64,000 nt of DNA, taken from assembly GCA_963665665.1 (NCBI GenBank), contig OY762428.1:1440001-1504000 (forward strand), given 5' to 3'. Origin of the DNA: Candidatus Kapaibacterium sp. GTDB taxonomy: Bacteria; Bacteroidota; Ignavibacteria; Kapaibacteriales; UBA2268. A program made the translations under genes and the position numbers. The notes beneath the pieces are model-generated. The model saw only the letters and a list, made by a program, of their open reading frames with translations, was not told the DNA's origin and did no database searches. Shown here in pieces: positions 1 through 47,871 of the stretch (its first letter is position 1; every line of letters starts with the position of its first letter).

Positions 1-24
1 ATATCCGAAAAACCTAAAAGAGTA

Positions 25-1137
25 ATGTACTCCCCCAAAAAAGTTGACCTTACAATAACCGGAAAATGCAATCTTCGCTGCATATACTGCTTTCATTTCA
101 ATAGTCCGGCGGATATTCCTAAAGATTTGACAACTGATGAATGGCTACAATTCTTTGAAGAACTAAACGCAGCAAATGTTCTCAGCGTAAGTGTCAGCGG
201 TGGCGAAGCCTTTGTTCGCAAGGACTTCAATGAAATAATTGAAGGAATCGTACGAAACAGAATGCGCTTCAATATCCTTTCCAACGGAACTCTGATAACT
301 GATGAAAAGGCTGAATTCCTTGCAAGTACTAAGCGCTGCGATTCCGTTCAGGTTTCTATTGACGGCCCGAATAGCAGTGTCCATGACCTTACCTGCGGGA
401 CAGGTTCTTTCGAAAAGGCAGTCAGGGGACTCCAGGCATTAAAAAAATTTGGTATTAACCGTGCAGTAAGGCTGACGATAACCAAGCAGAACTACATGTA
501 CTTAGAAGAAGCTGCCGATACTCTTCTCGGTGAACTTGGCCTGAGATCTTTCAGTACAAATTCGGCTTGTCCATTCGGTATGACGAAAAAGGATGCTGAA
601 AACATCATGCTCGGACCTGATGAATTTGCCAAATCAATGGAATTGCATAGCCGGGTTATAAAAAAATATGGCAACAGAATATCAGCACAGGCAGGGCCTC
701 TATCCTGCCACACTCATTGGAGTGAAAACGAGTATAAAGTAGAAAACAAGGTGGCTCCCAAACCGGGCGGAGGATACCTGACAAGCTGCGGAGGAGTTTT
801 CAGCAAACTTTCTGTCAGGTCTGACGGTACAATAACTCCCTGCACTCAGATGCCCCATATTGAACTTGGCAGGATTAACCGGGATAATTTCCTGGATATC
901 TGGCAAAATCATCCTGAACTGAAAAGGTTAAGAGAACGCAGGCTTATTCCGCTTTCTGATTTCGAGTATTGCCGGGATTGTAAATATATGCCTTATTGTC
1001 GGGGCGGGTGTCCTGCAAATGCTTATGAACTGCATGGTGATGAGAATCATCCGGTTTATTCAACTGACAGTTGTTATAAGAAGTTTCTTGAAGAAGGCGG
1101 TAAATTGCCTATAAAAGAAATTGAAGAAATTAAATAA
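25..1137 (+). CDS. scmE: Radical SAM/SPASM peptide maturase, SynChlorMet cassette ScmE-like
   Basis: CxxxCxxC (CNLRCIYC), SGGE motif, SPASM cysteines (CGG...TPC...CRDC...CRGGC...C). N-terminus PKKVDLTITGKCNLRC resembles ScmE. The frame is open to base 1, so the true start may lie upstream of the window. Confidence 0.8.
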   Translation: MYSPKKVDLTITGKCNLRCIYCFHFNSPADIPKDLTTDEWLQFFEELNAANVLSVSVSGGEAFVRKDFNEIIEGIVRNRMRFNILSNGTLITDEKAEFLASTKRCDSVQVSIDGPNSSVHDLTCGTGSFEKAVRGLQALKKFGINRAVRLTITKQNYMYLEEAADTLLGELGLRSFSTNSACPFGMTKKDAENIMLGPDEFAKSMELHSRVIKKYGNRISAQAGPLSCHTHWSENEYKVENKVAPKPGGGYLTSCGGVFSKLSVRSDGTITPCTQMPHIELGRINRDNFLDIWQNHPELKRLRERRLIPLSDFEYCRDCKYMPYCRGGCPANAYELHGDENHPVYSTDSCYKKFLEEGGKLPIKEIEEIK

Positions 1138-1163
1138 TCTGTGAAACTTAAAATATTAAATAG

Positions 1164-2339
1164 ATGTTTGAAACTAATGACCTATCGTGCACTGTACCTA
1201 ATAAATTATATCCAAAACCGGATTGCGGCTATTATCTTGGCTGTATTTATTTTTATATCCTTGAAGGTTGCAACCTGAAATGCAGGCACTGCTGGATTAA
1301 CCCTCCTTTTGAATCAGACAGCAAAAAGCCTAAATATCCATTCGTGGATATCGAACTTTTTAAGCATATCATAGAAGAGGCTACTCCACTTGGATTGAAC
1401 TCAGTGAAACTTACCGGCGGCGAACCACTTATCCATCCGGAAATTGAAAAAGTAATAAAACATGTTCATGAAAAGAACCTGAAATTAAATATTGAAACAA
1501 ACGGTGTTGCTATCACTCCTGCTTTGGCAAAATTAATTTTAGCTTCAAAGAAAAGAGTAAATCTTTCTGTCAGTATTGATTCTCACAAGCCGGAAGTTCA
1601 CGAATGGGTTCGCGGCGTTCCCGGATCATTCAATGATGCCGTACGCGGTGTGAAAACCATGGTGGCCGAAGGTTTCCATCCCCAGGTTATCATGTCTATC
1701 ATGAACAATACTTATAAGGACGTTGAAGGCCTTGTGCAGCTTGCCGAATCCATTGGTGCCGGCTCTGTAAAATTCAATCTGGTTACGCCCACAGCCCGCG
1801 GAGAAAAGATGCACGAACGCGGTGAAGTTCTTACAGTTGAGGAATTATTCAATCTCGGTAAATTTATCGAAGAAGAATTACAGCCGAAATCAAAGATCAG
1901 GCTGATATATTCATACCCACCGGCATTCAGGACGGTAAGAAATATTAAGCGAAGGCCTAATATTGCAGGCTGTGGGATATTCAGGATAATTGGCGTTCTT
2001 GGTACCGGAAAATATGCACTATGCGGAATTGGCGAAAGCCTTCCGGACTTTATATTCGGGGATGCGAAAACAGACAGCCTCAAAGAAGTCTGGAATAACA
2101 ACCCCATGTTGAACAGGATAAGGAAAGGCCTTCCATCCGAACTTACCGGAGTATGCTCTGACTGCATAATGAAACAGGGTTGCCTTGGTTCATGTATTGC
2201 AAATAATTACTATGATTCGGGAAATTTATTTGCACCTCACCGCTTCTGCCGTCTTGCTTATGAAGAAGGTTTCTTCCCGAAATCAAGGCTTGTACCAGGT
2301 AGCGAATATGATAAGAATTATTCAGAGATCAGAAAATAA
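1164..2339 (+). CDS. scmF: Radical SAM/SPASM peptide maturase, SynChlorMet cassette ScmF-like
   Basis: YFYILEGCNLKCRHCWI, VKLTGGEPL, SPASM cysteines (CGI...ALC...CSDC...CLGSC...FC). Directly follows the ScmE-like gene. Confidence 0.8.
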   Translation: MFETNDLSCTVPNKLYPKPDCGYYLGCIYFYILEGCNLKCRHCWINPPFESDSKKPKYPFVDIELFKHIIEEATPLGLNSVKLTGGEPLIHPEIEKVIKHVHEKNLKLNIETNGVAITPALAKLILASKKRVNLSVSIDSHKPEVHEWVRGVPGSFNDAVRGVKTMVAEGFHPQVIMSIMNNTYKDVEGLVQLAESIGAGSVKFNLVTPTARGEKMHERGEVLTVEELFNLGKFIEEELQPKSKIRLIYSYPPAFRTVRNIKRRPNIAGCGIFRIIGVLGTGKYALCGIGESLPDFIFGDAKTDSLKEVWNNNPMLNRIRKGLPSELTGVCSDCIMKQGCLGSCIANNYYDSGNLFAPHRFCRLAYEEGFFPKSRLVPGSEYDKNYSEIRK

Positions 2340-2342
2340 ACA

Positions 2343-2375
2343 AACCTTCCGAATATTCTGAATCTTAGGAAGGTT
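2343..2375. repeat. 33-bp palindromic REP-like element (AACCTTCC...GGAAGGTT), copy 1
   Basis: Same terminal inverted repeat and length as copies at 13583 and 51535. Confidence 0.6.
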
Positions 2376-2405
2376 ATACATCAAACTGAGAGAAAAAATT
2401 TTATA

Positions 2406-3314
2406 ATGCTCTACTATAAAGTATATAACCTGATTATCAAATCAGAAATGGAATTCCCTGAATTTAATTCCGTTTCTGCTGAACCTGTTGACAAGCCGGA
2501 TGTATTTATACATTTCGGCGAAGTTCGGGAAAGACTCCCCTACCCAACCAAACTTGGCGTTTGTTATACCTTGGGGAAAAATGTACTCCACCTGAATATC
2601 CCCGGTATAGCCCGATACCTGGTATGGAAAGGCAATGAGATAATTATTGATCCGGCAGAGGAAGCAGCAACTGATGCTGTCAGGTCTTTTATTTTCGATG
2701 CACCAATCAGTTGCATTATGCACCAGAGAAATATGCTGCCAGTTTACGGAGCCGCAATAAAAAATGGAGATCAGGCTTTTATGGTTATCGGAATTTCCGG
2801 CAACGGTAAATCCACAGCGGCCTTTGAACTGATTAAGCGTGGATATAAACTCATATCGGATGATATAAGCGTAATTTCTGATTTCGATGGGAAATTGACT
2901 GCCCTGCCCGCTTATCCATCAATAAAACTGCCTCTTGATACAATAAAAAGAGCGGATATGAATCCTGATGACTTTCCCACAATCAGGGATGGTATCGTTC
3001 AAAAAAGAATACCGGTAGATACAACAGATTTTTGTGATCAGCACCTTCCTATTGAAAAAATATATATTCTATCAGGTTGGAACAAAAGCGGTACTGAAAT
3101 AAAACAGCTTGAGGAAAATACAGCAAAATTCAACCTGCTTCATGATTCCATGCACAGGCAGTACCTGGCAGGTATGGGCGGAGGGTTTTCACTGGTAAAG
3201 ATCACGGCCAAACTGATGAGCACAATGCCGGCGGCACAGATTGTACATTCCAGGAATGTAAAAGATATCGACAAAATGATTGATATGATCGAGGAGGATT
3301 TGAAAAATGAATAA
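2406..3314 (+). CDS. HPr kinase-like P-loop protein (putative peptide Ser/Thr kinase)
   Basis: Walker A GISGNGKST followed by LISDD, preceded by LPVYGAAI (degenerate LHA/LHG motif). Architecture of the HprK-related kinases found in RiPP clusters. Confidence 0.75.
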   Translation: MLYYKVYNLIIKSEMEFPEFNSVSAEPVDKPDVFIHFGEVRERLPYPTKLGVCYTLGKNVLHLNIPGIARYLVWKGNEIIIDPAEEAATDAVRSFIFDAPISCIMHQRNMLPVYGAAIKNGDQAFMVIGISGNGKSTAAFELIKRGYKLISDDISVISDFDGKLTALPAYPSIKLPLDTIKRADMNPDDFPTIRDGIVQKRIPVDTTDFCDQHLPIEKIYILSGWNKSGTEIKQLEENTAKFNLLHDSMHRQYLAGMGGGFSLVKITAKLMSTMPAAQIVHSRNVKDIDKMIDMIEEDLKNE

Positions 3315-4167
3315 CGTAACGTGGCTGGCCTCTTACCCCAAATCCGGAAACACCTGGACCAGGGCTTTCCTGACAGCCCTTATGGGCAATATCTGTGAAG
3401 TAAATATTAACGGCCTCGGCAATATTACTATAGCCTCGGCTATGCTGCCTTTTGAATTTGCAACCGGAGTAAGGGCATCCGACCTGACAGATGATGAGAT
3501 CGAAACACTCAGGCCCGAAGCTCACAGGTTTCTTGCAGAAATGAATGAAAATCATTATTTCCTGAAGGTACACGATGCCTACATCTATACTGCAAAAGAA
3601 GAACCAATGTTCCCCACGGACGCAACCCACAGTGCGGTATACCTCCTGCGAAACCCACTGGATGTGGCCGTTAGCTGGGCAAACCATAGTGGAATTACAA
3701 TTGAAAACTCCGTTAACCAGCTTTGCAATCCCAAACAGGCCTTATCCCAAACAGGCCCTGCCGGAAATATCGGAAACCAGCTAAGGCAAAGGATGTTTAC
3801 CTGGGGCGGACATGTGGAAAGCTGGATAAACGCTAAAGAGATAAAAGTACTTACTATTCGCTACGAGGATATGAAAGCAGATGCCGTCAGGGAATTCTCA
3901 AGGCTTGTTGACTTCACCGAACTCGGGAAAACGAAAGAAGAAATCATTGCCGCCGAAGAAGCCTGCCGTTTCGAAAAACTAAAAAAACAGGAAGAAGAAA
4001 AGGGCTTTCGCGAGAAGAGGGCCGGATGTGAAAACTTTTTTAATAAAGGGAAAACCGGCTACTGGAAAGATGAACTCACAGAAGAACAGGTAAAGAAAAT
4101 CATCGATACTAATTTCGATATGATGCTGAAATTCGGGTATATTGATGAGGATAGTGTTCCTGTTTAA
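3307..4167 (+). CDS. PAPS-dependent sulfotransferase
   Basis: 5'-PSB motif WLASYPKSGNTW, 3'-PB motif RNPLDVAVS, RYEDM, C-terminal FFNKGKTGYWK. Overlaps the upstream kinase by 8 bp. Confidence 0.9.
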   Translation: MNNVTWLASYPKSGNTWTRAFLTALMGNICEVNINGLGNITIASAMLPFEFATGVRASDLTDDEIETLRPEAHRFLAEMNENHYFLKVHDAYIYTAKEEPMFPTDATHSAVYLLRNPLDVAVSWANHSGITIENSVNQLCNPKQALSQTGPAGNIGNQLRQRMFTWGGHVESWINAKEIKVLTIRYEDMKADAVREFSRLVDFTELGKTKEEIIAAEEACRFEKLKKQEEEKGFREKRAGCENFFNKGKTGYWKDELTEEQVKKIIDTNFDMMLKFGYIDEDSVPV

Positions 4168-4254
4168 CATTACATAGGATTTTATTTTTTATTTTTCATA
4201 ATTTTATTATTTTTAATAAATTATGGATTATCTTAATTCAAAGGAGTATTTAAG

Positions 4255-4494
4255 ATGGAAGAAACCAAAACAATACAATATTGCTCCCCGGAAGTAGTTG
4301 ATTTCAAGTGGATGGCTGTTTTAGGTGATTGTACTAATAATGGATCAGATCCGGGAGCATACTGTACTTCAAATGGAGGCATTGCAACGCAGGCATGCGA
4401 CTATAACGGATCTGGGGCTGTCGGAGGATGCGCTTCTAATGGTGCCAGTGCTACAACATGCGGGAACGGAGCCGGTACCGGCACCGGCGGATAA
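4255..4494 (+). CDS. RiPP precursor peptide A1 (79 aa)
   Basis: AAGGAG RBS. Leader YCSPEVVDFKWM. Core with five C-x(2-3)-G motifs (CTNNG, CTSNG, CDYNG, CASNG, CGNG). Confidence 0.88.
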   Translation: MEETKTIQYCSPEVVDFKWMAVLGDCTNNGSDPGAYCTSNGGIATQACDYNGSGAVGGCASNGASATTCGNGAGTGTGG

Positions 4495-4748
4495 ATTAAA
4501 TATCTCATGCTCCTCCACACAAGCTGCTGAAAATTATTTCCAGACAACTCTGGAAAAATGATCATACCGGAGTTGTTTATTATTAACCTTGTACTTTAAA
4601 TTAACAATCAAGTATTAATATAATCAAATTTTTATTCTAATACATTTCACAATTACTCAAAACAACCAGTACTATCAAATTTTAATTGCAAAACTTCATC
4701 TTTTTCTTTATATTATTGATATAAATAATCTTATTAAGGAATATTATA

Positions 4749-4967
4749 ATGGATGAATTAGAAAAAATTCATTACTGCACTCCTGAAATAGTCGACTTTA
4801 AATGGATGAAAATATTTGGCGATTGTATATCCCATGGTACAGGGGATTCAACCCGGTGTTCTGCCAATGGGTCAACAGCAGGAGGTACAAAATCTGCAAC
4901 CAAAGGATGTACCAGTGTCGGTTTACTTGCAGATAATACCTGTAAAGCCGGACTAAAGGCTTTTTGA
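4749..4967 (+). CDS. RiPP precursor peptide A2 (72 aa)
   Basis: TAAGGA RBS. Leader YCTPEIVDFKWM. Core CISHG, CSANG, CTSVG, CKAG. Confidence 0.88.
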   Translation: MDELEKIHYCTPEIVDFKWMKIFGDCISHGTGDSTRCSANGSTAGGTKSATKGCTSVGLLADNTCKAGLKAF

Positions 4968-5020
4968 CCGATTATTAGAAACCGGTATAATTGCCTGAAT
5001 GATTATTTCGGTTTATTAAT

Positions 5021-6178
5021 TTACAACAAACCAACTTTTACGGATACCCCGAATTCTTCGCTGAGCTTAGAATAATTCTCGCCTGTTAGGTCGTCCCCGA
5101 ATCTGTCAAAGGGATTGTTTGGAAGAACAATATGGTCGATAGAAATTTTCTGGTCTTTATACTTTTCAAACGCCTTTATAAGTGCTTTCCTGAAGTCTTC
5201 AACCATTAACAGGCCTGAACAAATTATATTTCCTTCGTAGGTATAATTCTTTACACATTCCGAATAGTGATTGTTCGGCACAAAAGGCAGGTTTTTTTCA
5301 ATTATTTCTTTGCCCCTTGCGTATGCCGCTTCAGAAAACATCCAGAGAACATTTCTAAACCCCTTATTAAATGAGCCAATCATAAATTGATAAGGATCGA
5401 AATTCAAAGGTTTGTTCAAATCAGGACGTACATCCAGGTCGATTTTGTACTTCTTTCTCATTTTCGCAAAGAAATCACTCATTTCAACAAGATCAACATC
5501 CATTATCTCTTTTAGTTCAGGCCCCGCATTTTTGCTCCACCCGGGAAGATAAACCAATACTTTCTTCACATAGAACATCAGTGCCTGAATCGTTTTTTCA
5601 ATATCTTCATAACCTACCAGTTTCGGCAGCGGAACCATGGCGGCATCCACAAAGAAGCCTTCTTTCAAAAGCCTGTAAAAGGAATTCCGGGCTATTTGGA
5701 ATTTTTCTATCTTGTTTTTATAAATCCGGCTCCAGTTCCCGGGATTATCAGAGTGATAGGAGATAGTAAATTTCATTGGTTTAAAAGGCAGAAGCTCCTT
5801 TATAAATTCCTCTGTAAACAGGGTTCCGTTTGTATTAACCTGGATGACTCTGCCCGGAATTTTTTCGCGTATGAGCTTCAAAATAGTAAAAATGTCCGGA
5901 TGCAGAAGTGCCTCACCCTCGGATACTCTGCCCGGCAGGCTGTCCCCTATCCTGATATCGGCATTAGATTTTGTATCCAATATGGCAATACCCTTCTTAA
6001 TATCATCAAGTGAGCGAAAACCTTCCCTGTATATTTCAAATGGGTTCATATCGTTTGAACAGAAAAGACATTTGGCATTGCAAACAGAGGAAACAGGCAA
6101 TTGATTAGTATATCCGCCTGCAAGAGTTTCGTACATAAATTTACTTATCTCAATTCCGCCCATGATAATTCCTGACAA
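5021..6178 (-). CDS. Radical SAM protein, DUF512/NifB-MoaA-like
   Basis: CNAKCLFC motif, EGEALLHP, NTNG. C-terminal NYTYEGNIICSGLL...DDLTG resembles DUF512. Start codon uncertain. Confidence 0.7.
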   Translation of the reverse strand: MSGIIMGGIEISKFMYETLAGGYTNQLPVSSVCNAKCLFCSNDMNPFEIYREGFRSLDDIKKGIAILDTKSNADIRIGDSLPGRVSEGEALLHPDIFTILKLIREKIPGRVIQVNTNGTLFTEEFIKELLPFKPMKFTISYHSDNPGNWSRIYKNKIEKFQIARNSFYRLLKEGFFVDAAMVPLPKLVGYEDIEKTIQALMFYVKKVLVYLPGWSKNAGPELKEIMDVDLVEMSDFFAKMRKKYKIDLDVRPDLNKPLNFDPYQFMIGSFNKGFRNVLWMFSEAAYARGKEIIEKNLPFVPNNHYSECVKNYTYEGNIICSGLLMVEDFRKALIKAFEKYKDQKISIDHIVLPNNPFDRFGDDLTGENYSKLSEEFGVSVKVGLL

Positions 6179-6401
6179 TAATACTATTCAAAGCCTGACA
6201 TATACTTCGCAACATATCTTTGGAATAAAATAAATAATTTTTTTTGCAGCAGCAAATTTATGTTTCCAGATAAAAAGAAAAAGTATTATTTGGTATTACT
6301 TCTTCAAACAAATTGCCATTTTAAATTTCCGCTACTAAATATCATCACAGGTTATTATTTTGTAAAAATTTTTGTTTTTGAATTTTCATAGGAACTTAGG
6401 G

Positions 6402-6593
6402 ATGGAAGGAACTGTGATATTATCTTATTGTACGCCTGAAGTTATTGATTTCAAGTGGATGGATTCAGTAGGCTTATGTAACCCCGGATCTGGGGACTCT
6501 TCAAATTGCTCTGATGGTAATGTTGCAAGTACGATTTGCAACCAGGGAAATACAGCAGGGGTTAATTGCTTTGTTGGCCCTGACTTTTCATAA
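6402..6593 (+). CDS. RiPP precursor peptide A3 (63 aa)
   Basis: ATG at 6402 aligns with A1/A2. Leader YCTPEVIDFKWM. Core CNPG, CSDG, CNQG, CFVG. Confidence 0.87.
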   Translation: MEGTVILSYCTPEVIDFKWMDSVGLCNPGSGDSSNCSDGNVASTICNQGNTAGVNCFVGPDFS

Positions 6594-6626
6594 TTAATTA
6601 TTGTTTTACAAATATTGAGTATTGTT

Positions 6627-6833
6627 ATGGAAGAGGCAGGAAGAATAAAATATTGCATACCGGAAGTTGTTGATTTCAGGTGGATGGGTGTTCTTGGTCA
6701 CTGTACAAATGGAACTTCCGCAGCTCATGCCGGAGGTTCGAATTGCTCTCAGGGAAGTAGTGCGGATTCAGTTTGTAATATTGGAAATGATGCATATAAC
6801 TGTGCTGCCAATGGTAATGTTGTTTCAAGTTAG
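6627..6833 (+). CDS. RiPP precursor peptide A4 (68 aa)
   Basis: ATG at 6627. Leader YCIPEVVDFRWM. Core CTNG, CSQG, CNIG, CAANG. Confidence 0.87.
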   Translation: MEEAGRIKYCIPEVVDFRWMGVLGHCTNGTSAAHAGGSNCSQGSSADSVCNIGNDAYNCAANGNVVSS

Positions 6834-6924
6834 ATTCGTATCAATTAAAAAATTTCTGAATAATTGAATTAACAGATAAAATTCATTAATTTGGGTTTTA
6901 TCTGTTTTATTATTTAGATAAAGT

Positions 6925-7800
6925 ATGGAATATATTTTTAACCTGGCAAATGGCAGAAAATGGAAGCTAAAGTCATTATCCGAAAAAACTGATTTCGTAA
7001 CAGGAAATTATGCCCGTGTTTGTTCAATGAAAGAATCTTCAAACAACATCGACTGCGAAATTTCCTGTTTTGTGGATACAACTGAAGAAGTAAATGAATA
7101 TCGAAAGTACCATCCTGATTATATTGAAACCGGAAGAAAAGATTACGTTCGAATATTTTTCTCTCCCGATTATAAAGAAAGCATGGTATTCTTCAATCCG
7201 GAAAATCTTGATCACGAAAATCTGAAGTATTTATCTACAAATTATATTTCACGGGCATATCAGATACAGGCAATAAAAAACTACAAGGCTCTCCCCTGCC
7301 ATTGCGCACTGGTGGAAATTGAGGGCAAAGGCGCAGTGATCGGAGCCGTGGGTGATTGCGGAAAATCCACTTGCGCTACAAGGCTCCCCCATCCACACAA
7401 GGCCCTTGCCGATGATTATGCAATGATATTTCCCGTGAACGGGGATCTGATTGCACAGGCCATGCCCACCTGGAGCGTTTTCATAGGGGGCGACAGGGAT
7501 TACCGGGCAAACTGTTCTCAATCAACAATGGTAAAATCATTTTTCTTCCTTAAACAAAGTAAAACTGACTATGTAGAACGCACCAACGGAGTAATAGCCC
7601 ACCAGCATTTGAACAATAATTTTCAGGATCTGCTTGCCCTGAGGGTTTTGAAGGACCAACCTGAAGGCTTTGGCGAGGAAATACGCACTAAGATATTCGA
7701 TATGGCCGGGAAAATATCCGGGAAGTGGCCTACTTATTTTCTTCATGCCACACTTCATGGTGATTTCTGGAATAAAATGAATGAAGTGATGGAGGAATAA
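6925..7800 (+). CDS. scmC: SynChlorMet cassette protein ScmC-like (HPr-kinase-related P-loop protein)
   Basis: HCALVEIEGKGAVIGAVGDCGKSTC, LADD, AMPTWS and FFLKQ motifs, plus cassette context. Confidence 0.72.
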   Translation: MEYIFNLANGRKWKLKSLSEKTDFVTGNYARVCSMKESSNNIDCEISCFVDTTEEVNEYRKYHPDYIETGRKDYVRIFFSPDYKESMVFFNPENLDHENLKYLSTNYISRAYQIQAIKNYKALPCHCALVEIEGKGAVIGAVGDCGKSTCATRLPHPHKALADDYAMIFPVNGDLIAQAMPTWSVFIGGDRDYRANCSQSTMVKSFFFLKQSKTDYVERTNGVIAHQHLNNNFQDLLALRVLKDQPEGFGEEIRTKIFDMAGKISGKWPTYFLHATLHGDFWNKMNEVMEE

Positions 7801-7804
7801 AGCC

Positions 7805-8413
7805 ATGCAGCGAATTACCGATTACGACTATACCGGCCCCAGTATGAAGCGGGTTTTCAAACCCGCCGACGGCCTGATTATTGATCAGAATACTGATTTC
7901 AATGCTCTAAAACCCGGGGATATAATAAATTTTAAACCACCCGGAAATATTCATCATATTGTTCACCGTATAATAAAAAAAACAGCGGAAGGATATATTA
8001 CCCGTGGCGATAATAACAGCGGTCCCGATCCATATATTATTACCCCGGAATTCAATCCCAGTCTGGTTGTTGCTATTCGCCGCGGAAAAAAAGACATAAA
8101 ACTATACCGTGGAAAGATTGGAGTGATGATACATCATAAAAACCTGATGTTAAAGAAACTGCAGGTCTATACTAAATCCCCTTTGAAAAGAATATTGGAT
8201 AGAATTTCAGATGCCGGTATATTTTATAAACTCCATTTGTATGACAACAAAATTGAAGTTAAGCAATACAGAAATAACAATTTCTCGCAGAAAATCCTTT
8301 TCCTTGGAAAAAAGCAGATTGGACGGAAGATTCAATCCGAAGAATGGAATATCCGGCAACCGTGGCGGCTTTTCATTGATCCGAAAATTCTGGATGAGGC
8401 AAACCAAAAATGA
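7805..8413 (+). CDS. S24/S26-family (signal peptidase-like) serine peptidase, candidate leader peptidase
   Basis: GPSM catalytic-Ser motif, GDII, IVHRI, TRGDNN. No N-terminal TM helix. Confidence 0.8.
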   Translation: MQRITDYDYTGPSMKRVFKPADGLIIDQNTDFNALKPGDIINFKPPGNIHHIVHRIIKKTAEGYITRGDNNSGPDPYIITPEFNPSLVVAIRRGKKDIKLYRGKIGVMIHHKNLMLKKLQVYTKSPLKRILDRISDAGIFYKLHLYDNKIEVKQYRNNNFSQKILFLGKKQIGRKIQSEEWNIRQPWRLFIDPKILDEANQK

Positions 8414-8438
8414 GGCCGCGAAAATCCAGGCCTCATTT
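8408..8438. terminator. Bidirectional intrinsic terminator between convergent genes
   Basis: AAATGAGGCC...GGCCTCATTT inverted repeat. Confidence 0.55.
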
Positions 8439-8458
8439 ATTCTGTCACTATTAAAGTA

Positions 8459-10027
8459 TCATTTTCCAATTATAAGCCTTTTCATAGCATGCTCTCCGGA
8501 TTCGGAGCTTATTGCCACAAGGTACATTCCGGTTTTAAGATTCCCCAGGGAAACTTTGATTTCTTTTGTTCCCAGATTATATTTCGAAGGTTGGATCAGG
8601 TTTTTAATAAATTTTCCGCTTATATCATGTAGTGAAACTGTGTAAGTGTTCTCCCGGAGAACTATAAAACTGACTGTTGTTTCATTTATTGCCGGGTTAG
8701 GATATAAATTCAATTCAGCAATTGATTCTGACTGCATACGGCAAACATCAAAGAATGATTCCTGATCAGACAGCCCTTTGCAGGCGCTTTCATAAGCAAT
8801 TTCATTTTTCTTGAGTTCACTGAGTATTTTCAGTTCCTTCCTGATAGGAGCAGCGTACCTTTCAGGAATAGCATTCAGGAACTCTTCATTGGGTATGAAC
8901 CAAAGATAGCAGTCAACAGACAGGTCTTTTTCCGGATTGTCCAGAAATTCAGACGGAGGGCTACTTAATTTCACAGGAACAAGATAATTAGAGCGCAACT
9001 CGGTTCTCATAGCCTCAAGTTTAACAAATTCTTTAGTATATTTTTCCTTAATTGCCAAATTTTCCGATGCACTTCGCCCGTAGCCATCCCTCATTTCATC
9101 TAATGCATTTTCTGTTTTTGCAAGCTGCCGGTAGTATTCACTTGTTTGTTCGTCCCCGAAATGAAGCAGAGGAGAGTATATCATATTTGAATGTAATTCA
9201 ATCGACCAAAGTACTGGCGCTACCCGGGAATAATCTTTATAGTCCCATCCTGTATATTCAATATCCTTATCTCCGAATTGAGCGGTATATTTATACCTGA
9301 TTTCATCGGTATCATTGAATTTCAGCGGATTCCGAACTGAACTCAGCCTGGTTCCTTCCACATCGAATTCATCGTACTTTTTCCAGGCTATAATACTTTT
9401 GGATCGAAATAGTACCGGTTCGGTGAAAGTAGTATCATATCCGGATTTTGCCATTCGTTTCTTCCAGTATCCGCGTTTAGGGGCCAGAAACAGTTCCTCG
9501 GTTATATAAGAATACGAGTTCCCGTTAAATTCAATATTAAGATTTTTCAACTCCTCGGGATTCAATTCTAATACGCTTAGGCCGGTTATATCCTGATCGG
9601 TATCTAACCTGCTTTTTACTTCTTCATTCGCAGGTTTGGTTTGTTTAAGTTTTTCAGCATATTCTCTCGCTAATTCATCCGCAGATACAGGTTTTTTCTC
9701 AGTGGTATCAGCTAAAATATACGATTCAGAAACTACGGGTTTATTGTTGTCATTTGTTTGAATTGTCTCGGTTTTCACAGTCTCTTCAGCCTGAGATTCC
9801 GTTACTTCATTATTGTTCAAAGTATTCAACAGCATTATCGCCGGGATTAAAATTGTTAACAGCATAACATACCAATATTTTTTAAACATTTTTTTGATTT
9901 TGTTTTGTTGATGACTATCAAGCGCTTGATTGGTATCCAACAATTCATCAATATCCTCTTTCGAGTAAATATTTTCAATTTTTAAACTTTTATTAGCGGT
10001 TTTCAGGTATTTATCTATATTTTTCAT
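8459..10027 (-). CDS. Putative anti-sigma-like membrane protein with C-terminal T9SS type A sorting domain
   Basis: ~50-aa cytoplasmic N-terminus, one TM helix (YWYVMLLTILIPAIMLL), C-terminal LYPNPA...DISGK...GMYLV...KRLII. ATGA overlap with the ECF sigma gene. Confidence 0.65.
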   Translation of the reverse strand: MKNIDKYLKTANKSLKIENIYSKEDIDELLDTNQALDSHQQNKIKKMFKKYWYVMLLTILIPAIMLLNTLNNNEVTESQAEETVKTETIQTNDNNKPVVSESYILADTTEKKPVSADELAREYAEKLKQTKPANEEVKSRLDTDQDITGLSVLELNPEELKNLNIEFNGNSYSYITEELFLAPKRGYWKKRMAKSGYDTTFTEPVLFRSKSIIAWKKYDEFDVEGTRLSSVRNPLKFNDTDEIRYKYTAQFGDKDIEYTGWDYKDYSRVAPVLWSIELHSNMIYSPLLHFGDEQTSEYYRQLAKTENALDEMRDGYGRSASENLAIKEKYTKEFVKLEAMRTELRSNYLVPVKLSSPPSEFLDNPEKDLSVDCYLWFIPNEEFLNAIPERYAAPIRKELKILSELKKNEIAYESACKGLSDQESFFDVCRMQSESIAELNLYPNPAINETTVSFIVLRENTYTVSLHDISGKFIKNLIQPSKYNLGTKEIKVSLGNLKTGMYLVAISSESGEHAMKRLIIGK

Positions 10028-10590
10028 GATTCAGCCTCAATGAAATTTCCTTTTGAATTTATATTTTCAGGAATTTCCGCCCCGAGTAATTTTCTTAGTT
10101 TTGTTTTCGCCCTGTGCAATCTTACCTTTACAGCCGGAAGTGACGCCTTCTGTATTTCACATATTTCTTTAAGTTTAAAGCCGAAAATTTCATGCAGCAC
10201 TACTACTTCTCTAAGTTTTTCACTCAATTTATCCAAAGCTGCGTAAAGTATCTTTATATCTGCAAGTTTTTCGGCATTTTCTGCATTCGAAAACATTTCA
10301 TCAATAACTTCATTAGTCATACTGTAAGTCTTACTGGATTTCCGGAAATATTTTATTTTTGTCCTTCTTGCTATTGTAAGAACAAAGCTGAGGAATGATT
10401 CATGTTTTTTCAGTTTTTCGAAGTTCTCGTAAGCCTGTAGTATTGTTTCCGAGATAATATCCTTTGCGTCATCCCTGCTGCCAGAAATTGAATATGCAAA
10501 CCTTTCCAGCTTTGGATATACCCCATCCAATAATTCCATGAAGAGTTGCTTTTTGTTTTCAAAGCCTGTCATTTCAATTCCTTGTTTCAC
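10024..10590 (-). CDS. ECF RNA polymerase sigma factor
   Basis: Region 2 (DDAKDIISET...FLSFVLTIARR) and region 4 (ALDKLSEKLREVVVLHEIFGFKLKEI...VKVRLHRAK). Confidence 0.9.
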   Translation of the reverse strand: MKQGIEMTGFENKKQLFMELLDGVYPKLERFAYSISGSRDDAKDIISETILQAYENFEKLKKHESFLSFVLTIARRTKIKYFRKSSKTYSMTNEVIDEMFSNAENAEKLADIKILYAALDKLSEKLREVVVLHEIFGFKLKEICEIQKASLPAVKVRLHRAKTKLRKLLGAEIPENINSKGNFIEAES

Positions 10591-10601
10591 TTTCTGAAAG
10601 G

Positions 10602-10631
10602 GTAGTAGCCAATAGAGCCAAAAAGGTTACA
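10602..10631 (-). promoter_or_regulatory. Putative ECF-type autoregulatory promoter
   Basis: Minus strand TGTAACC-N16-CTACTAC immediately upstream of the sigma GTG start, resembling AAC-type ECF -35 elements. Confidence 0.45.
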
Positions 10632-10753
10632 TTTACTTTTTAAATATTTTTCTTCATATCCAAAATAACTAATCTGCAAACAATTAAATAATGTCTCCCG
10701 TTATTTTATCAATATTATTAATTTGCAATTATGTAAACAGATAAGGAGTAAAA

Positions 10754-11446
10754 ATGTACCTGTGCGGAACAAATATTGATGTAGAAAAAATGATTGAATT
10801 TTTAAATGGCAACAATATTGCTGATAGTGATTTTGTACACACCGGCAATTTTCTTTTCCATAGCAATACAGTCTCAAGAAAAGAACTTAGCAGCCTATGT
10901 GTTGAACGAAATATAAATATTTTCATTATTAGGGGAAGTTTAGATGATCCGGATGAATTTATTTCCGGCAGCGGACTGAATAATTTAACATTCATGCAGG
11001 ACAATACTTTCCTGAAAATTGCGGGTAAAACAGCATTTGCCTGCGGGGGCGGTATTTCACCTGATAAAGACATGTTCGGCCCAAGAAAAGACGGCGAGCG
11101 GCTGGATAAAATCTATTTCGACAAAAAAGTTTTTTCCAAATCTAAACCTGAACTGATAATTACCCATTTAGCTAACCCGATAATATATCCCGAGAGGGCA
11201 GCCTTTATAGAAGGGCTTGAGCAATTGCAGGATTCGCCCTGCGTTTGCCGCCAGCTTGAAAACGAGGCTAACTTGCAAAATATAATGTACAGGGCAGTTA
11301 AAAGACAAAAATCCGTTAAGGCATGGCTGAGCAGCGGCAATTTCGGCATAAGAGAAAAAAATGATATCCAGTATATTGGCTTGGGAGATGAAGAGATAAT
11401 GAATATAGAATTGAAAATATTTTTCAATAGAATCAATAAAAAATAA
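10754..11446 (+). CDS. Calcineurin-like metallophosphoesterase fold protein, degenerate active site
   Basis: AAGGAG RBS. Motif order HTGNF / IIRGSLD / ACGGGIS / LIITH / WLSSGNF parallels GD, GNHD, THx and GH motifs. Confidence 0.5.
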   Translation: MYLCGTNIDVEKMIEFLNGNNIADSDFVHTGNFLFHSNTVSRKELSSLCVERNINIFIIRGSLDDPDEFISGSGLNNLTFMQDNTFLKIAGKTAFACGGGISPDKDMFGPRKDGERLDKIYFDKKVFSKSKPELIITHLANPIIYPERAAFIEGLEQLQDSPCVCRQLENEANLQNIMYRAVKRQKSVKAWLSSGNFGIREKNDIQYIGLGDEEIMNIELKIFFNRINKK

Positions 11447-11573
11447 AATAATTTTTGGTTTTTAAAATAATTAATGTTAAAATTGACCATAGAATCTTGA
11501 AAAAATTAATTGCGGGGAGGTATTATTATAGAATAATATTATTAACAAAAATTTAAAGCGTTGTCTTTATAAC

Positions 11574-11695
11574 GTTCTTGATTGAAAATCGCCAATTTTC
11601 TTAATGAACGGAACGGTATTAAGGACGCGCCCCAGCTTGGGGCGTTTTCCTTTATGTTTCGTTCAAGGGTGTTTGGCGATACCTCAATCAGAGAC
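11574..11695 (+). ncRNA. Candidate structured RNA (long imperfect hairpin)
   Basis: Nested complementary arms TGATTGA/TCAATCA, ATCGCCAA/TTGGCGAT, TGAACGGAAC/GTTTCGTTCA, CGCCCCA/TGGGGCG, with G-U pairs on the + strand. Confidence 0.45.
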
Positions 11696-11740
11696 ATAAA
11701 TGTGAAAATGTCCCTTTTTCAATAATCTAAAGGTTTAAAA

Positions 11741-13573
11741 ATGTTTAAAAGAATTACTATCCTGATACTTTTTGTTTTTTCTGCTAATGTTTTATTCGCT
11801 CAATTTCCAATAAAAATTGAAGTCAATTCTGACGGATCAATATCAGAATCACCTGTTACAAAAGAAGGTGTGAAATATATTATTACAATTACGGGAACTT
11901 ATTCAATGTGGCCTCAGTTTGAAGATTGTCATGGAGCTGATGCCGGATATGTTTACGATGTACCACAGGAAGAAATCGATAATTTACGATGGCCACCTGA
12001 ATATATTGAAGTTGGTGGATTTAAAATTGAATTAGTAAAATTACCTCATTGGGTTGGTGACCCTAAAGTATGGTCTATCCCCCCTGAGGAAATTTCAACA
12101 CCAATGTTTAAAATGAGCTTTAGAGATTATAAGGGCTTTAGAATTGATGGAGAGCCAATTCCCAATACTGGATTTCAAGAATTAACTCATAGATATCAAA
12201 TTGAAAAAATTGGAACAGGAAACCCATTTATCTTCCAGATACTTGATTCTAACAGAAGTATTATCGAAGAAAGAACTGTCCCAAGGTATGAAGATAATTG
12301 TGGTTTTTTAACTATTGATATTGAAGAAGTGATTGTCAATAATGATGACGACGATGAAGAATTTGATATTTCTGTTGGAAATGTTGATTTCAGAAGAAAT
12401 AACGATGGAAAAATTGATGGCAGAAAGATTGAAGTTAGCATAGAAATCGAAGATTCTACAGAAATAGATGGTTCTAAAAACATCCTGGAAGATATCCCGA
12501 TTGACAATATTGGTATTATATATGATGGCAAAATTATTTGTGATATCGACTCAATAATTTGTAATGAAAGAACAGAACCCGTATCGATAGGTTTATTAAT
12601 CGATCGAACTGAAAGTATGGGAGGCCCTATAAGTGAAGAAGATATGACACAAAGAATGAGTGCCTCAAAAGAAGCATTAAAAAACTTTGTTGAAGTTTTA
12701 TTAGATGAAGATGAAGCTTTTGTTATGTCATTTTCTGAAGATACAAGAATGGATCAAACATGGACAAATGATAAGACACTACTAAAAGATGCAATCGACG
12801 GATTAGAACCCGACGCGCTTACTGCCGTGTGGGGAGCAATCAACACAGCTATTGATACATTATCACTAAGCGATGACCCCAATCGTTTTCTTGTTGTATT
12901 ATCAGATGGTGGTAATACATTCCCTCCAGAATGGGACGAAAGTCAAGTATTAATCAAAGCACAATCAAAAAATATCAAAATATTTATCGTTGCTTTAGGT
13001 TTTTCTCAATTGCAAATAGATCAGGATGGCAGAGCAAAGCTTGAACAGGTAGCTGAAGTTTCCGGTGGTAAAATATTCGATGTCTATAATTCTGAACAAT
13101 TAAATACTGTTTATGAAAATCTTAGCGAAGAGCTTACAACTGAAGAAGATTGTTTTATTTATTTTTCTGCTGATAGTTGTGAACCTGGAAAAGAAGGTTG
13201 GATCAGGATAATATATGCTCCTAACGACTCGACAATAGTTACTGAAGTAATTAAATACAAATGCCCTGATGAACCTAATTCTGTATTTTGGGAAATTAAA
13301 TCTGAATATAAAGATGTTGAAAATTTAAATATATTCCCTAACCCAACCGATAGTAAAATATTTATTGATTTTGATTCACAAAAAGCTGAAAATATCATTA
13401 TTAAAATTGTTGATCTGAATGGAAAAGAAATTCTGAATAGTGATTTGGGGTGGATTGATATCGGGAAAAACTCATTTGAGTTTGACGTTTCAAAGCTGGC
13501 TCAGGGAAGCTATCAAATACTTTTTATCAGCAACGAAAGTATTATCGCAAAGAAAATTCTTATAGTTAAATAA
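11741..13573 (+). CDS. Secreted VWA-domain protein with T9SS type A sorting domain
   Basis: Signal peptide, VWA MIDAS-like LLIDRTESM...T...LSDG, C-terminal IFPNPT...DLNGK...GSY...KKILIVK. Confidence 0.85.
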   Translation: MFKRITILILFVFSANVLFAQFPIKIEVNSDGSISESPVTKEGVKYIITITGTYSMWPQFEDCHGADAGYVYDVPQEEIDNLRWPPEYIEVGGFKIELVKLPHWVGDPKVWSIPPEEISTPMFKMSFRDYKGFRIDGEPIPNTGFQELTHRYQIEKIGTGNPFIFQILDSNRSIIEERTVPRYEDNCGFLTIDIEEVIVNNDDDDEEFDISVGNVDFRRNNDGKIDGRKIEVSIEIEDSTEIDGSKNILEDIPIDNIGIIYDGKIICDIDSIICNERTEPVSIGLLIDRTESMGGPISEEDMTQRMSASKEALKNFVEVLLDEDEAFVMSFSEDTRMDQTWTNDKTLLKDAIDGLEPDALTAVWGAINTAIDTLSLSDDPNRFLVVLSDGGNTFPPEWDESQVLIKAQSKNIKIFIVALGFSQLQIDQDGRAKLEQVAEVSGGKIFDVYNSEQLNTVYENLSEELTTEEDCFIYFSADSCEPGKEGWIRIIYAPNDSTIVTEVIKYKCPDEPNSVFWEIKSEYKDVENLNIFPNPTDSKIFIDFDSQKAENIIIKIVDLNGKEILNSDLGWIDIGKNSFEFDVSKLAQGSYQILFISNESIIAKKILIVK

Positions 13574-13582
13574 TCTAAAAAA

Positions 13583-13615
13583 AACCTTCCGGATGTTCAT
13601 AACATTCGGAAGGTT
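13583..13615. repeat. 33-bp palindromic REP-like element, copy 2 (may also act as terminator)
   Basis: AACCTTCCGGATGTTCATAACATTCGGAAGGTT. Confidence 0.6.
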
Positions 13616-13639
13616 AATAAAATCTGTATAATCAATCCC

Positions 13640-14068
13640 TTACTTCAGATCAACAATCAGCTCTGCATAAGCATCTTCGGTTTCGTAAACACGGAGGCAT
13701 AACCTGTGCAGGTTATCATACTTTTTAAACTCAGGAGAAAAAATATCCGCCAGATGCAGTGCAATATTTTCCGCCGTGGTGTAATCGTTAATAACGTAAT
13801 GTTTGAAGCCGTTAGCCTTAAGAAAATCTATCATCAGCTTATCGTTTTTATCACAGATAAAAGTATGATCCAGGATTTCAACCATCGGCTTAACAATTGT
13901 TTTAATAATATAATAATCCAGCACCATAGAATCATTCGTCGGCTCACCTTCAAGCTCCACCCTGATCCTATATGTATGCCCGTGGACATTTCGGCACAGG
14001 CCGTCGTGAAAAGGCAGCCTGTGGCTCATTTCCCACTGGAAATCCTTAGCAACCTTGATCATTTTCAT
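13640..14068 (-). CDS. queD: 6-carboxy-5,6,7,8-tetrahydropterin synthase
   Basis: SHRL, CRNVHGHTY, LDH, TTAEN, VYET motifs. Start at 14068 overlaps the queF stop (TAATG). Confidence 0.9.
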   Translation of the reverse strand: MKMIKVAKDFQWEMSHRLPFHDGLCRNVHGHTYRIRVELEGEPTNDSMVLDYYIIKTIVKPMVEILDHTFICDKNDKLMIDFLKANGFKHYVINDYTTAENIALHLADIFSPEFKKYDNLHRLCLRVYETEDAYAELIVDLK

Positions 14069-14415
14069 TATTTGTTTTCTTTTTTGTGAACAGCTCTTAC
14101 TGTTGAACGCATACCGCCACGGGTGCTCCACTCGGTAATAATTTCCATTTCAATCGGGTCGCAGGCTGCTACCAGGTCGTCAAGGATTACGTTTGTTACG
14201 GCCTCGTAGAAAATACCTTTATTGCGGAAATTCATAAAGTAATATTTAAGAGACTTTAACTCAAGGCATAATTCGTCCGGAACATATTTAATAAATACTG
14301 TTCCGAAATCAGGAAGTCCGGTTTTAGGGCATACTGATGTAAATTCGGGATTCGAATGTGTTATCTCGTAATATCTTCCGGGAGAAGGGTTTTCAAAAGT
14401 TTCTATTTTATCCAT
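14068..14415 (-). CDS. queF: NADPH-dependent 7-cyano-7-deazaguanine reductase
   Basis: PEFTSVCPKTGLPDF, ELKSLKYY, RGG motifs. Confidence 0.95.
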   Translation of the reverse strand: MDKIETFENPSPGRYYEITHSNPEFTSVCPKTGLPDFGTVFIKYVPDELCLELKSLKYYFMNFRNKGIFYEAVTNVILDDLVAACDPIEMEIITEWSTRGGMRSTVRAVHKKENK

Positions 14416-14547
14416 TATATTTACCTTTATTCATCATCTTTAATTTCAGGACTTCAAATTTAATATAATAATTTGAAATAATTTAATGAATTTTTTGGAA
14501 TTTCTTCTTAGTTTGGATAATTGATTTAGTCATTAAACGGATTGAAA

Positions 14548-15321
14548 ATGAAGGAAAAAGAATTACACAGCAGCGGCGACAGATATATATACGGACGAAA
14601 CGCCGTAATCGAAGCCCTGAAAGCCGGAAACGAGATAGAAAAAATTTTTGTTATTCACGGTATCAAAGGAAAAAACGTGGATCAGATATTTTCTTCCGCA
14701 AAAAGGCAGGGAATATATATATCCATACAGGACAGGCGAAAATTCGTTGTAACAGAGGAAAAAGCAGGGGCCGATAAGACTAAATCACAGGGAGTTGTTG
14801 CATTACTTAAAAATGTGAAAACAATCAGCCTTCCTGAGTTGGTAAAAATTGCTAATAATAAAGAAGACAGGCCGGTGATAATCGCTCTTGACGAGATTAC
14901 CGACCCGCAAAACCTCGGTGCTATTGCAAGAAGCGCCGAATGTTCCGGAGCAGCCGGTTTGCTGATGGCTGAAAGAAACGCGGCTCCCTTGTCTTCCGTA
15001 GCAGTAAAAGCTTCCGCCGGCGCTTTGGAACACCTACCCGTTTGCAGGGTTGGCAATCTTGCCCGCGCCTTGGAAGAATTGAAAGACAAAGGATTCTGGG
15101 TACTCGGAACCGATATGGATGCAGAAAATACCTATGACGACAATGTTTATGACCGTCCCGTGGTTATAATAATCGGCAGCGAAGGCAAAGGCATGAGGCC
15201 CGTGATCCGCAAGCAGTGCGATTATTTTATCCGCATACCGCTGCACGGTAAAATATCATCGCTGAATGCTTCTGTATCGGCAGCAATTGTACTATTCGAA
15301 ATAAGAAGGCAGAGGAAGTAA
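14548..15321 (+). CDS. rlmB: 23S rRNA (guanosine-2251-2'-O)-methyltransferase, TrmH/SpoU family
   Basis: IYGRNAVIEAL, DPQNLGAIARSA, IIGSEGKG, SLNASV. Confidence 0.92.
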   Translation: MKEKELHSSGDRYIYGRNAVIEALKAGNEIEKIFVIHGIKGKNVDQIFSSAKRQGIYISIQDRRKFVVTEEKAGADKTKSQGVVALLKNVKTISLPELVKIANNKEDRPVIIALDEITDPQNLGAIARSAECSGAAGLLMAERNAAPLSSVAVKASAGALEHLPVCRVGNLARALEELKDKGFWVLGTDMDAENTYDDNVYDRPVVIIIGSEGKGMRPVIRKQCDYFIRIPLHGKISSLNASVSAAIVLFEIRRQRK

Positions 15322-43271: not shown

Positions 43272-43517
43272 ATGTTATACAAGAAATTGAGTATAAAATC
43301 ATTAAGCAATAACGACTGTGCTTTATGCTTAGCCGGGTCAATGGCAGGTTCACCTGCAGCTCAGGTACTTTGTGAATCGGGTTCAGCTCCTGATAATATT
43401 AATAAATATGGTTGTACCAACGGCTACGAAAATACTTCTCACGATATTACAAAATGCAATTCCGGATCGCTAAATCAGATCCCCTCTTCCTGTTTTAACG
43501 GGGTAGAACCTTTATAA
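43272..43517 (+). CDS. RiPP precursor-like peptide B1 (81 aa)
   Basis: Leader MLYKKLSI. Core CLAG, CESG, CTNG, CNSG, CFNG. ATG 43272 chosen by alignment with B2-B6. Confidence 0.75.
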   Translation: MLYKKLSIKSLSNNDCALCLAGSMAGSPAAQVLCESGSAPDNINKYGCTNGYENTSHDITKCNSGSLNQIPSSCFNGVEPL

Positions 43518-47412: not shown

Positions 47413-47650
47413 ATGAAGCGCAAAGAACTCAAAATCAATGCACTTAATAAAAGATATTTCAATTATCCGGCAATGGCGTTTTTCCAGGAAGAACTGTCGG
47501 GCTATGTTTTCCTGGCCATGTTATTGCTAATCATGATATACACTCATTAGCAATACCCTATTAGGCCTTTGTTATCAAGGTAGATATCCGCTAAGAGCAA
47601 CGGGAAATTCCAACAAATCAAATACTTATTATTACTCAGAAAAATTATGA
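47413..47650 (+). pseudogene. Possible frameshifted remnant of a B-type precursor
   Basis: Leader-like MKRKELKINALN from 47413, then GLCFPG (47499-47516) and GLCYQG (47564-47581) in the two other frames. Confidence 0.25.
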
Positions 47651-47871
47651 AATATACTAAACCAAGGCTTAATAATATAAATTCCGAAACTATTCGAACA
47701 TATTGTGCAGACGGAACTGCCGCTCAGGCTTCAACAGGATGTATTGCCGGAGGAGCTATTGATTTTTTATGTTCATTTGGCATAGAGAAGGGTAATTGTG
47801 TTGCAGGGTTCGAGGCTTCATCAGGAGGATTATCAGTTGAATGTGATAACGGAAGCGATGATATTCTCTAA
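47647..47871 (+). CDS. RiPP precursor-like peptide B2 (74 aa)
   Basis: Leader MKYTKPRL. Core CADG, CIAG, CSFG, CVAG, CDNG. Confidence 0.82.
   Translation: MKYTKPRLNNINSETIRTYCADGTAAQASTGCIAGGAIDFLCSFGIEKGNCVAGFEASSGGLSVECDNGSDDIL

Follow-up and report, generated by a model that had tools for sequence, protein, structure and literature searches.

What do two adjacent radical S-adenosylmethionine (SAM) enzymes act on in the genome of Candidatus Kapaibacterium sp., and are the four short open reading frames (ORFs) beside them, A1-A4, their substrates? The locus occupies positions 1-8413, mostly on the plus strand, of a 64,000-nucleotide stretch of contig OY762428.1 (assembly GCA_963665665.1, positions 1,440,001 to 1,504,000), referred to below as the window; the host genome is complete (5.46 Mb). 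We read this region, with a probability of about 75%, as a divergent SynChlorMet (Scm) cassette for a ribosomally synthesized and post-translationally modified peptide (RiPP), in which A1-A4 are distant precursors of the ScmA family. Judged from sequence, it is very probable that A1-A4 are true RiPP precursors: a conserved leader is joined to a variable core, and several copies stand beside maturases and a RiPP recognition element (RRE). They are likely substrates of the cassette in which they lie.

Gene content of the cassette

The initial annotation had listed two radical SAM/SPASM genes, two P-loop genes, a sulfotransferase, an S26 peptidase and four short ORFs, and each was found where it had been placed. 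The list was incomplete, missing a third radical SAM gene of the DUF512 type, the ScmD gene upstream and six precursor-like ORFs at 43-51 kb. The cassette comprises the following features (lengths in amino acids, aa).

L004 11720-11995, just upstream of the window: ScmD, PqqD-like RRE (TIGR04248, 87.4 bits)
1-1137, plus strand: ScmE, radical SAM/SPASM maturase (TIGR04250, 492 bits; PF04055, PF13186)
1164-2339, plus strand: ScmF, second radical SAM/SPASM maturase (TIGR04251, 461.4 bits; PF04055, PF13186)
2406-3314, plus strand: HprK-related P-loop kinase-like protein, candidate tailoring enzyme, 302 aa (TIGR04352, 32.2 bits; PF07475, 31.7 bits)
3307-4167, plus strand: sulfotransferase, Sulfotransfer_1 (PF00685, 89 bits)
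4255-4494, plus strand: A1, predicted precursor, 79 aa, class-1 leader, 5 core Cys (AGGAG 9 nt upstream of the ATG)
4749-4967, plus strand: A2, predicted precursor, 72 aa, 4 core Cys (AAGGA upstream)
5021-6163, minus strand: third radical SAM protein, Radical_SAM plus DUF512, non-SPASM, 380 aa (PF04055, 48.1 bits)
6402-6593, plus strand: A3, predicted precursor, 63 aa, 4 core Cys (TIGR04252, 15.6 bits; AGGAA upstream)
6627-6833, plus strand: A4, predicted precursor, 68 aa, 4 core Cys (leader and core alignment)
6871-6906, plus strand: terminator-like hairpin 3' of A4, 15-pair stem then a T-rich tail (consensus match only)
6925-7800, plus strand: ScmC, P-loop protein of the phosphoenolpyruvate carboxykinase (PEPCK)/HprK fold (TIGR04249, 117.7 bits)
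7805-8413, plus strand: S26-type (Sec11/SipW-like) peptidase, candidate leader peptidase, 202 aa (TIGR02228, 50.6 bits)

The ScmE frame extends to an ORF of 381 aa (L004 11992-13137) whose ATG overlaps the ScmD stop, and the true start of the gene is probably 8 nt before the window. For A3 and A4, the most likely starts are 6402 and 6627.

Probable precursor peptides A1-A4

The alignment of A1-A4 contains nine invariant positions (Y9, P12, E13, D16, F17, W19, M20, G24 and C26), and the class-1 leader consensus is M-E-x4-[IM]-x-Y-x-x-P-E-[VI]-[VI]-[DG]-F-x-W-M-x3-G. The cores are Ser/Thr-rich and hold 4-5 Cys each, with a spacing between Cys of mostly 10-11 residues, so that the near-invariant leader and the C-x2-3-G cores described initially were both recovered. 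Among the 26 core Cys of class-1 peptides (A1-A4 and two orphans elsewhere in the genome), 11 have a Gly at +3 and 15 have it at +4, usually as C-x-x-N-G; in the peptides of the genome with the second leader type, class 2, Gly stands at +3 for 80 of 83 core Cys.

Across leader codons 9-20, the proportion of synonymous differences (pS) is 0.835 and that of nonsynonymous differences (pN) 0.173, a pN/pS of 0.21 obtained from 15 non-independent pairs among 6 paralogues with saturated synonymous differences. Selection therefore acts on the peptide and not on the DNA. The purine-rich motifs listed above for A1, A2 and A3 are Shine-Dalgarno-like. A1 (P0002) and A3 (P0001) have been called as genes, in identical form, in public protein sets, as has a variant of A2 with 4 residue changes on another contig (P0003). 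A word-indexed protein search for close class-1 relatives returned only A1, A3 and this one A2 variant, and a metagenome scan returned a single 1070-bp contig. No Pfam model matches the peptides, and the ESM Atlas gave only unnamed clusters for A1 (0.88), a lead at most. A1-A4 do align with a wider ScmA-like family.

A large precursor family at Scm loci

To assess how such peptides associate with Scm enzymes, one genome per species was scanned with a ScmE alignment. Of the 80 loci obtained, 51 are ScmE-like, with representatives in Chlorobiaceae, Desulfobacterota, Lentisphaerota, Omnitrophota, Chloroflexota, methanogens and other groups. At least three CxxG motifs within an ORF of 30-160 aa were present at 33 of these 51 loci vs 3 of the 29 other radical SAM loci. 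When a [YWF]xxP leader followed by at least three C-x2-3-G units was sought, 35 of 45 Scm-like loci with two radical SAM genes had a match (43 matches in 708,551 bases), vs 3 of 25 other radical SAM loci, two of these three looking genuine. The same pattern gave 20 matches in the Kapaibacterium genome, 16 of them genuine by eye, and none in the reversed genome. Out of 40,283 genome ORFs of 30-160 aa, 18 carry at least four CxxG, and 16 of these 18 are of the precursor kind, which exceeds what chance would give. Matches judged spurious by eye were left in all counts: in the CxxG screen L027 4368-4556, L038, L039 562-882, L054 1911-2114 and 14604-15068, and L059 3154-3534; in the leader-plus-core screen four of the 20 genome matches and L094.

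In the family alignment the consensus reads K-Y-x-x-P-x-L-x-x-L ... G-x-C-x-x-G, with repeats after it. A profile built from 28 members retrieved 2372 representatives at 50% identity (E <= 0.001) in an exhaustive search of 1.84 billion proteins, spanning many bacterial and archaeal phyla; the top 150 matches are mostly 60-120 aa long. Eleven representatives were read, of which ten are short with the same leader and repeats and one, P0121 (265 aa), has the leader and many more repeats. The initial annotation had staked the substrate role of A1-A4 on finding similar short ORFs near other ScmE/ScmF pairs, and such ORFs are there, beside 35 of the 45 pairs.

The existing model of the precursor, TIGR04252 ('SCM_precur_ScmA'), recognizes only 3 of the 28 family members at E <= 0.01, at best with 24.3 bits. 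It is a narrow model, and within the much wider family A1-A4 are outliers. Since TIGR04252 is already in NCBIfam, the curators of the Scm family had already proposed a precursor, and A3 matches it weakly, so the earlier presentation of the precursors as newly identified does not hold. The accompanying claim of an undescribed class survives only in that no product paper was found; the precursor family itself was already catalogued. The literature search, which returned no paper on an Scm product, left out most subscription journals and supplements, so a published product is possible. Haft and Basu are said to have been the first to name the Scm cassette, in 2011.

Two kinds of unusual family member were also observed. 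Five long proteins (P0117-P0120 and P0141, 770-1843 aa) match the core-repeat region of the precursor profile 5-18 times; they could be multi-core precursors of giant size or Cys/Gly repeat proteins with no relation to the family. Scm-linked precursors at L033 14000-15775 and L036 7345-7704, from Syntrophaceae metagenome-assembled genomes, have 14-16 Cys including CxxC and CC and form a denser core type.

Variation between strains

Related strains were compared through contigs from runs X1, X4/X5 and X6, X1 being probably the source of the window. X4 differs from window positions 1-6264 at 105 of 6264 bases. X6 is more distant, with 165 differences in 1056 bases of ScmE, 93 in 819 of ScmF, 238 in 2268 of the kinase and sulfotransferase genes and 95 in 1503 of the A2 end and DUF512 gene; no long piece aligned at about 4153-4762. 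The DUF512 gene is kept inside the cassette in both X4/X5 and X6. In X4 and X6, the segment 6264-6874, which holds A3 and A4, is swapped for a stretch about as long that cannot be aligned at 80%. Between strains, the enzyme genes are retained and the precursor segment is hypervariable.

A separate observation concerns ScmC: in X4/X5, a 110-base patch (7429-7540) is of equal length and too diverged to align, between flanks of about 98% identity.

Core enzymes and the proposed crosslink

ScmE and ScmF both exceed the cut-off of 400 bits of their models, ScmE over profile positions 1-358 of 358. ScmC has residues G146, K147, D163, D164 and H126 invariant in 19 sequences, and its structural model (predicted local distance difference test (pLDDT) 91.9, predicted template modelling score (pTM) 0.88) matched in Foldseek the PEP carboxykinases (6.5e-07; query TM 0.40-0.55) and HPr kinase/phosphatases (4.4e-06). 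The model therefore points to a protein of the P-loop phosphotransfer fold; no sequence relative of ScmC was found among PDB structures. Among 254 genomes from the same order or family, ScmC was found in one, which is this genome. The S26-like protein falls just under its cut-off (50.6 vs 51.85 bits) and matches no Pfam model. It conserves G11, S13, M14, H54, R55, G68 and D69 across 15 homologues, in the motifs G-x-S13-M, H54-R and G-D; we take this conserved Ser/His to fit the Sec11/SipW subtype. Its gene comes after ScmC in many Scm loci.

For the chemistry, we tentatively favour one Cys-derived thioether per repeat, at somewhat less than even odds, by analogy and because each repeat has one Cys and SPASM peptide maturases are in general known for such bonds. 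The poly-crosslinked products foreseen in the initial annotation are likewise a prediction. The main competitor is that A1-A4 are true Scm substrates undergoing other chemistry at the C-x-x-G units, such as oxidation of Cys to formylglycine, epimerisation, C-C or C-O crosslinking or a change to the Gly backbone, a reading to which we give clearly less weight. In its favour, the closest solved structures to ScmE, all distant, differ in what they catalyse: SkfB (7e-21) forms thioethers, SuiB a C-C bond and anSME formylglycine. The NCBIfam neighbours of ScmE include WgkB, AhbD, MftC and PqqE. Similarity to SkfB, PapB and StsB is only distant, the PapB model giving 91.8 bits vs a cut-off of 340. 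ScmE and ScmF are moreover conserved together, and the retention of two distinct radical SAM enzymes suggests more than one reaction type. What speaks for the thioether instead is the one strictly conserved Cys in every repeat; with SPASM peptide maturases such as the sactipeptide and ranthipeptide enzymes, the thioether is usually donated by Cys.

Strength of the Scm assignment

Several observations weigh against reading the region as an Scm cassette with ScmA-type precursors. A3 scores 15.6 bits against the TIGR04252 cut-off of 35 and so falls outside ScmA by that measure, and A1, A2 and A4 have no TIGR04252 match at E <= 10. ScmD reaches 87.4 bits vs a cut-off of 100, though TIGR04248 is its best match and it lies directly upstream of ScmE, and ScmC 117.7 bits vs 125 (E 6.2e-34; profile positions 1-291 of 292). 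The model search proposed in the initial annotation thus placed ScmE and ScmF in their families and left ScmC and ScmD short. No precursor-like ORF was found in 10 of the 45 Scm-like loci, three of which are contigs of 2.7-6.2 kb and several others of 12-21 kb. The window cassette has no transporter, whereas a canonical Scm cassette elsewhere in the genome has one. The kinase, the sulfotransferase and the DUF512 protein are tied to the peptides by adjacency only, and the DUF512 gene, a member of a widespread family, runs on the opposite strand.

The predicted complex of ScmD with leader residues 1-32 gives weak support. It scored 0.38 vs 0.16 for the best control, with a partner pLDDT of at least 55 and runs agreeing in at least 84% of contacts. 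Among solved complexes 58 of 80 reach the pass mark, among mismatched pairs 2 of 110; passes at a score of 0.60 or below comprise 7 of the 80 solved complexes plus both passing mismatches, and are more often wrong unless the pairing was likely beforehand. This pass may also reflect memory, because RRE-leader complexes have already been solved.

The kinase, sulfotransferase and DUF512 radical SAM genes

The description of the cassette as expanded was upheld, as none of the kinase, the sulfotransferase and the third radical SAM protein has a homologue at E <= 1e-6 in any of the 80 comparison loci. Both kinase scores (TIGR04352, PF07475) are under cut-off. Elsewhere in the genome each of the two enzymes has a single paralogue, at 28% identity for the kinase and 44% for the sulfotransferase, and both paralogues lie within a lasso-peptide cluster at 2.30 Mb (L098 4547-11308). 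This cluster encodes a cyclase (NF033535, 232.6 bits), a B2 protease (NF033537, 82.2 bits), an inserted Fic protein, the sulfotransferase, the HprK-related kinase and an NTP_transf_5 nucleotidyltransferase; a 93-aa ORF occupies the expected place of a PqqD-type B1 and is a candidate for it. On the 1070-bp metagenome contig (L099), a homologous sulfotransferase gene is followed directly by a class-1 leader.

The DUF512 protein has 113 homologues at 35-70% identity, several of which also carry PF04459, with source names including Omnitrophota, Acidobacteriota and Elusimicrobiota. Against solved structures it gave weak NifB-like matches only, and no characterised function of the family was found in the literature searched. 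Of 61 genomes it was found in this one alone and in none of the 60 same-family relatives, and it therefore belongs to the island. From its position it may be a participant in the pathway.

The expansion could nonetheless be mere adjacency, with the kinase, the sulfotransferase and/or the DUF512 protein not acting on A1-A4 and the functional unit being ScmD, ScmE, ScmF, ScmC and the peptidase. We consider this doubtful but a serious contender. Its strongest points are the absence of all three genes from the 80 other loci and, for the DUF512 gene, the opposite strand and a broad family found in many phyla. It is countered by the retention of the three genes in the cassette of diverged relatives (X6 differs by 6-16%), by the sulfotransferase and class-1 leader on the independent metagenome contig, by the kinase/sulfotransferase pair having its sole paralogues as tailoring genes of another RiPP cluster, and by the absence of the DUF512 gene from the 60 relatives, so that it arrived with the island.

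On metagenome contig L099 (594-820), a frameshift or an assembly error has put the class-1 leader and its Cys/Gly core into different reading frames.

A second cassette and predicted orphan precursors

Against two cassettes, the genome has some 21 precursor-like genes, of which 6 belong to class 1 and about 15 to class 2. The second, canonical Scm cassette is at 3.056 Mb (L005, G000:C1:3048001-3066000, positions 8038-14980) in the order peptide, ScmD, ScmE, peptide, ScmF, ABC transporter, ScmC, S26-like, peptide. It scores higher than the window cassette for ScmE (546.8 bits), ScmF (519.5 bits) and ScmC (227 bits), and its ScmD is also below the TIGR04248 cut-off (85.8 bits).

The window also contains six class-2 ORFs with the leader MKYxK[PL]xL, interspersed with genes for PFOR, rubrerythrin, ferritin and NADH dehydrogenase. 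Their distance is about 40 kb to the window cassette and 1.5 Mb to the canonical cassette.

43272-43517, plus strand: possible orphan class-2 precursor, uncertain, leader MLYKKLSI (5 CxxG)
47647-47871, plus strand: predicted orphan class-2 (ScmA-like) precursor, leader MKYTKPRL (pattern and family alignment)
47989-48219, plus strand: predicted orphan class-2 precursor, leader MKYSKLRL (family alignment)
49470-49733, plus strand: predicted orphan class-2 precursor, leader MIYRKPHL (pattern and family alignment)
49799-50053, plus strand: predicted orphan class-2 precursor, leader MIYSKPNL (leader-plus-core pattern)
51084-51329, plus strand: predicted orphan class-2 precursor, leader MKYRKLNL (CxxG screen)

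Six further single orphan class-2 ORFs are at genome positions 1862387, 2398884, 3327265, 3824542, 4952715 and 5344156. Two orphans with the class-1 leader (KYEVPEVIGFEWM) are at 5.279 Mb (L097 938-1150 and 1217-1459), by housekeeping genes of the decarboxylase type and with no cassette nearby.

With a canonical cassette in the same genome, the window cassette might be redundant or decaying, all precursors, class 1 included, being matured from 3.056 Mb. The transporter and higher family scores of that cassette and the Y-x-x-P-x-[LIV] motif common to both leader classes fit this idea. It is nevertheless improbable: the window genes are all intact ORFs with conserved catalytic motifs, related strains conserve the window cassette, a DF[KR]WM extension under strong constraint sets the class-1 leader apart, and the ScmD of the window cassette shares just 51% identity with its canonical counterpart. 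That A1-A4 are chance ORFs in intergenic DNA is very unlikely, for although they are short, with low-complexity cores and no curated family above cut-off, the six paralogues keep a conserved leader despite saturated synonymous differences, the conservation is family-wide and the reversed genome gives no pattern match.

On its 3' side the cassette borders genes for proteins with type IX secretion system (T9SS) tails and for an extracytoplasmic function (ECF) sigma factor. Its GC content of 0.398 vs 0.386 for the genome is reached in 27% of genomic windows and gives no compositional hint of recent transfer; a sigma-70 promoter scan was uninformative for this type of organism. An unconnected, near-identical ORF of 52-80 aa with CRVGTGCDAGDGECGYG recurs at 413, 92944, 637376, 641811, 645603, 5450309 and 5454337; it is unrelated to the precursors and probably represents one frame within a repeated element or rRNA operon.

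Proposed pathway

We propose that the RRE ScmD would bind the conserved class-1 leader and hand the core to ScmE and ScmF, which would modify each repeat of about 11 residues with its one Cys and a Gly at +3 or +4. The conserved Gly could provide the acceptor C-alpha or meet a conformational requirement. ScmC might follow with a nucleotide-dependent phosphorylation or other activation of the peptide, and the soluble S26-type peptidase would cut the leader near the conserved G-x-C junction. In this cassette only, the kinase and the sulfotransferase could place phosphate or sulfate on the Ser/Thr-rich cores, and the DUF512 radical SAM protein might perform an additional step. All chemical steps, their order and the role of the three extra enzymes are inferred.

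A more ambitious picture, which we regard as speculative and rather unlikely as a whole, would have two orthogonal leader/RRE systems serving a dispersed library of about 21 ScmA-like precursors. The window cassette would then be a natural hybrid, its (C-x-x-(N)-G)n peptides crosslinked by radical SAM enzymes and afterwards O-phosphorylated and/or O-sulfated by the two enzymes with lasso-cluster paralogues, possibly with a DUF512 step, and strain-specific swapping of the A3-A4 segment would diversify a new RiPP class.

Comparison with known systems

Compared with the Scm system as modelled in NCBIfam (ScmA TIGR04252, ScmC TIGR04249, ScmD TIGR04248, ScmE TIGR04250, ScmF TIGR04251), the window cassette shares ScmE and ScmF above cut-off, a full-length ScmC-like protein, a ScmD-like RRE, an S26-like gene after ScmC, the Y-x-x-P leader and Cys-x-x-Gly repeats. 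It differs in the sub-threshold scores of ScmC, ScmD and the peptides, in an extra invariant [DG]F[KRE]WM block of the leader (YCxPEVVDFKWM) and in many core units of the form C-x-x-N-G rather than C-x-x-G. Its four precursors stand in two pairs parted by the opposite-strand DUF512 gene, and a kinase and a sulfotransferase are added while an ABC transporter is absent.

Like the lasso cluster of this genome with its HprK-related kinase and sulfotransferase, the cassette has a PqqD-type RRE, the paralogous enzyme pair and a Y-x-x-P-x-[LIV] leader, a motif that in lasso leaders is the RRE-binding element. Unlike lasso clusters, window positions 1-8413 contain no lasso cyclase or B2 protease, and the maturases are radical SAM/SPASM proteins. 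With the sactipeptide and ranthipeptide systems (SkfB, AlbA, PapB, CteB) the cassette shares leader-guided radical SAM/SPASM maturases and Cys-containing cores; freyrasin has a repeated motif resembling the one-Cys units of A1-A4. The cassette, however, has two maturases, and its core has an invariant Gly and not an Asp/Asn/Thr acceptor motif.

Prochlorosin-type systems combine many scattered precursor genes with few maturases. The present genome is similar in its roughly 21 dispersed precursor-like genes, two cassettes and strain-hypervariable precursor segment, but its enzymes are radical SAM proteins rather than LanM lanthipeptide synthetases, and the use of orphans in trans is only predicted.

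Implications

Within the reach of our searches, family models are all that is known of the Scm system and no product has been described, although its precursor superfamily is large. The locus offers a compact test bed in which four predicted substrates stand together with the RRE, the two maturases, a putative leader peptidase and three additional putative tailoring genes, and the canonical cassette with the other leader class in the same genome can act as a specificity control. One solved product would define the chemistry of the family and provide a first function for ScmC and possibly for the DUF512 radical SAM protein.

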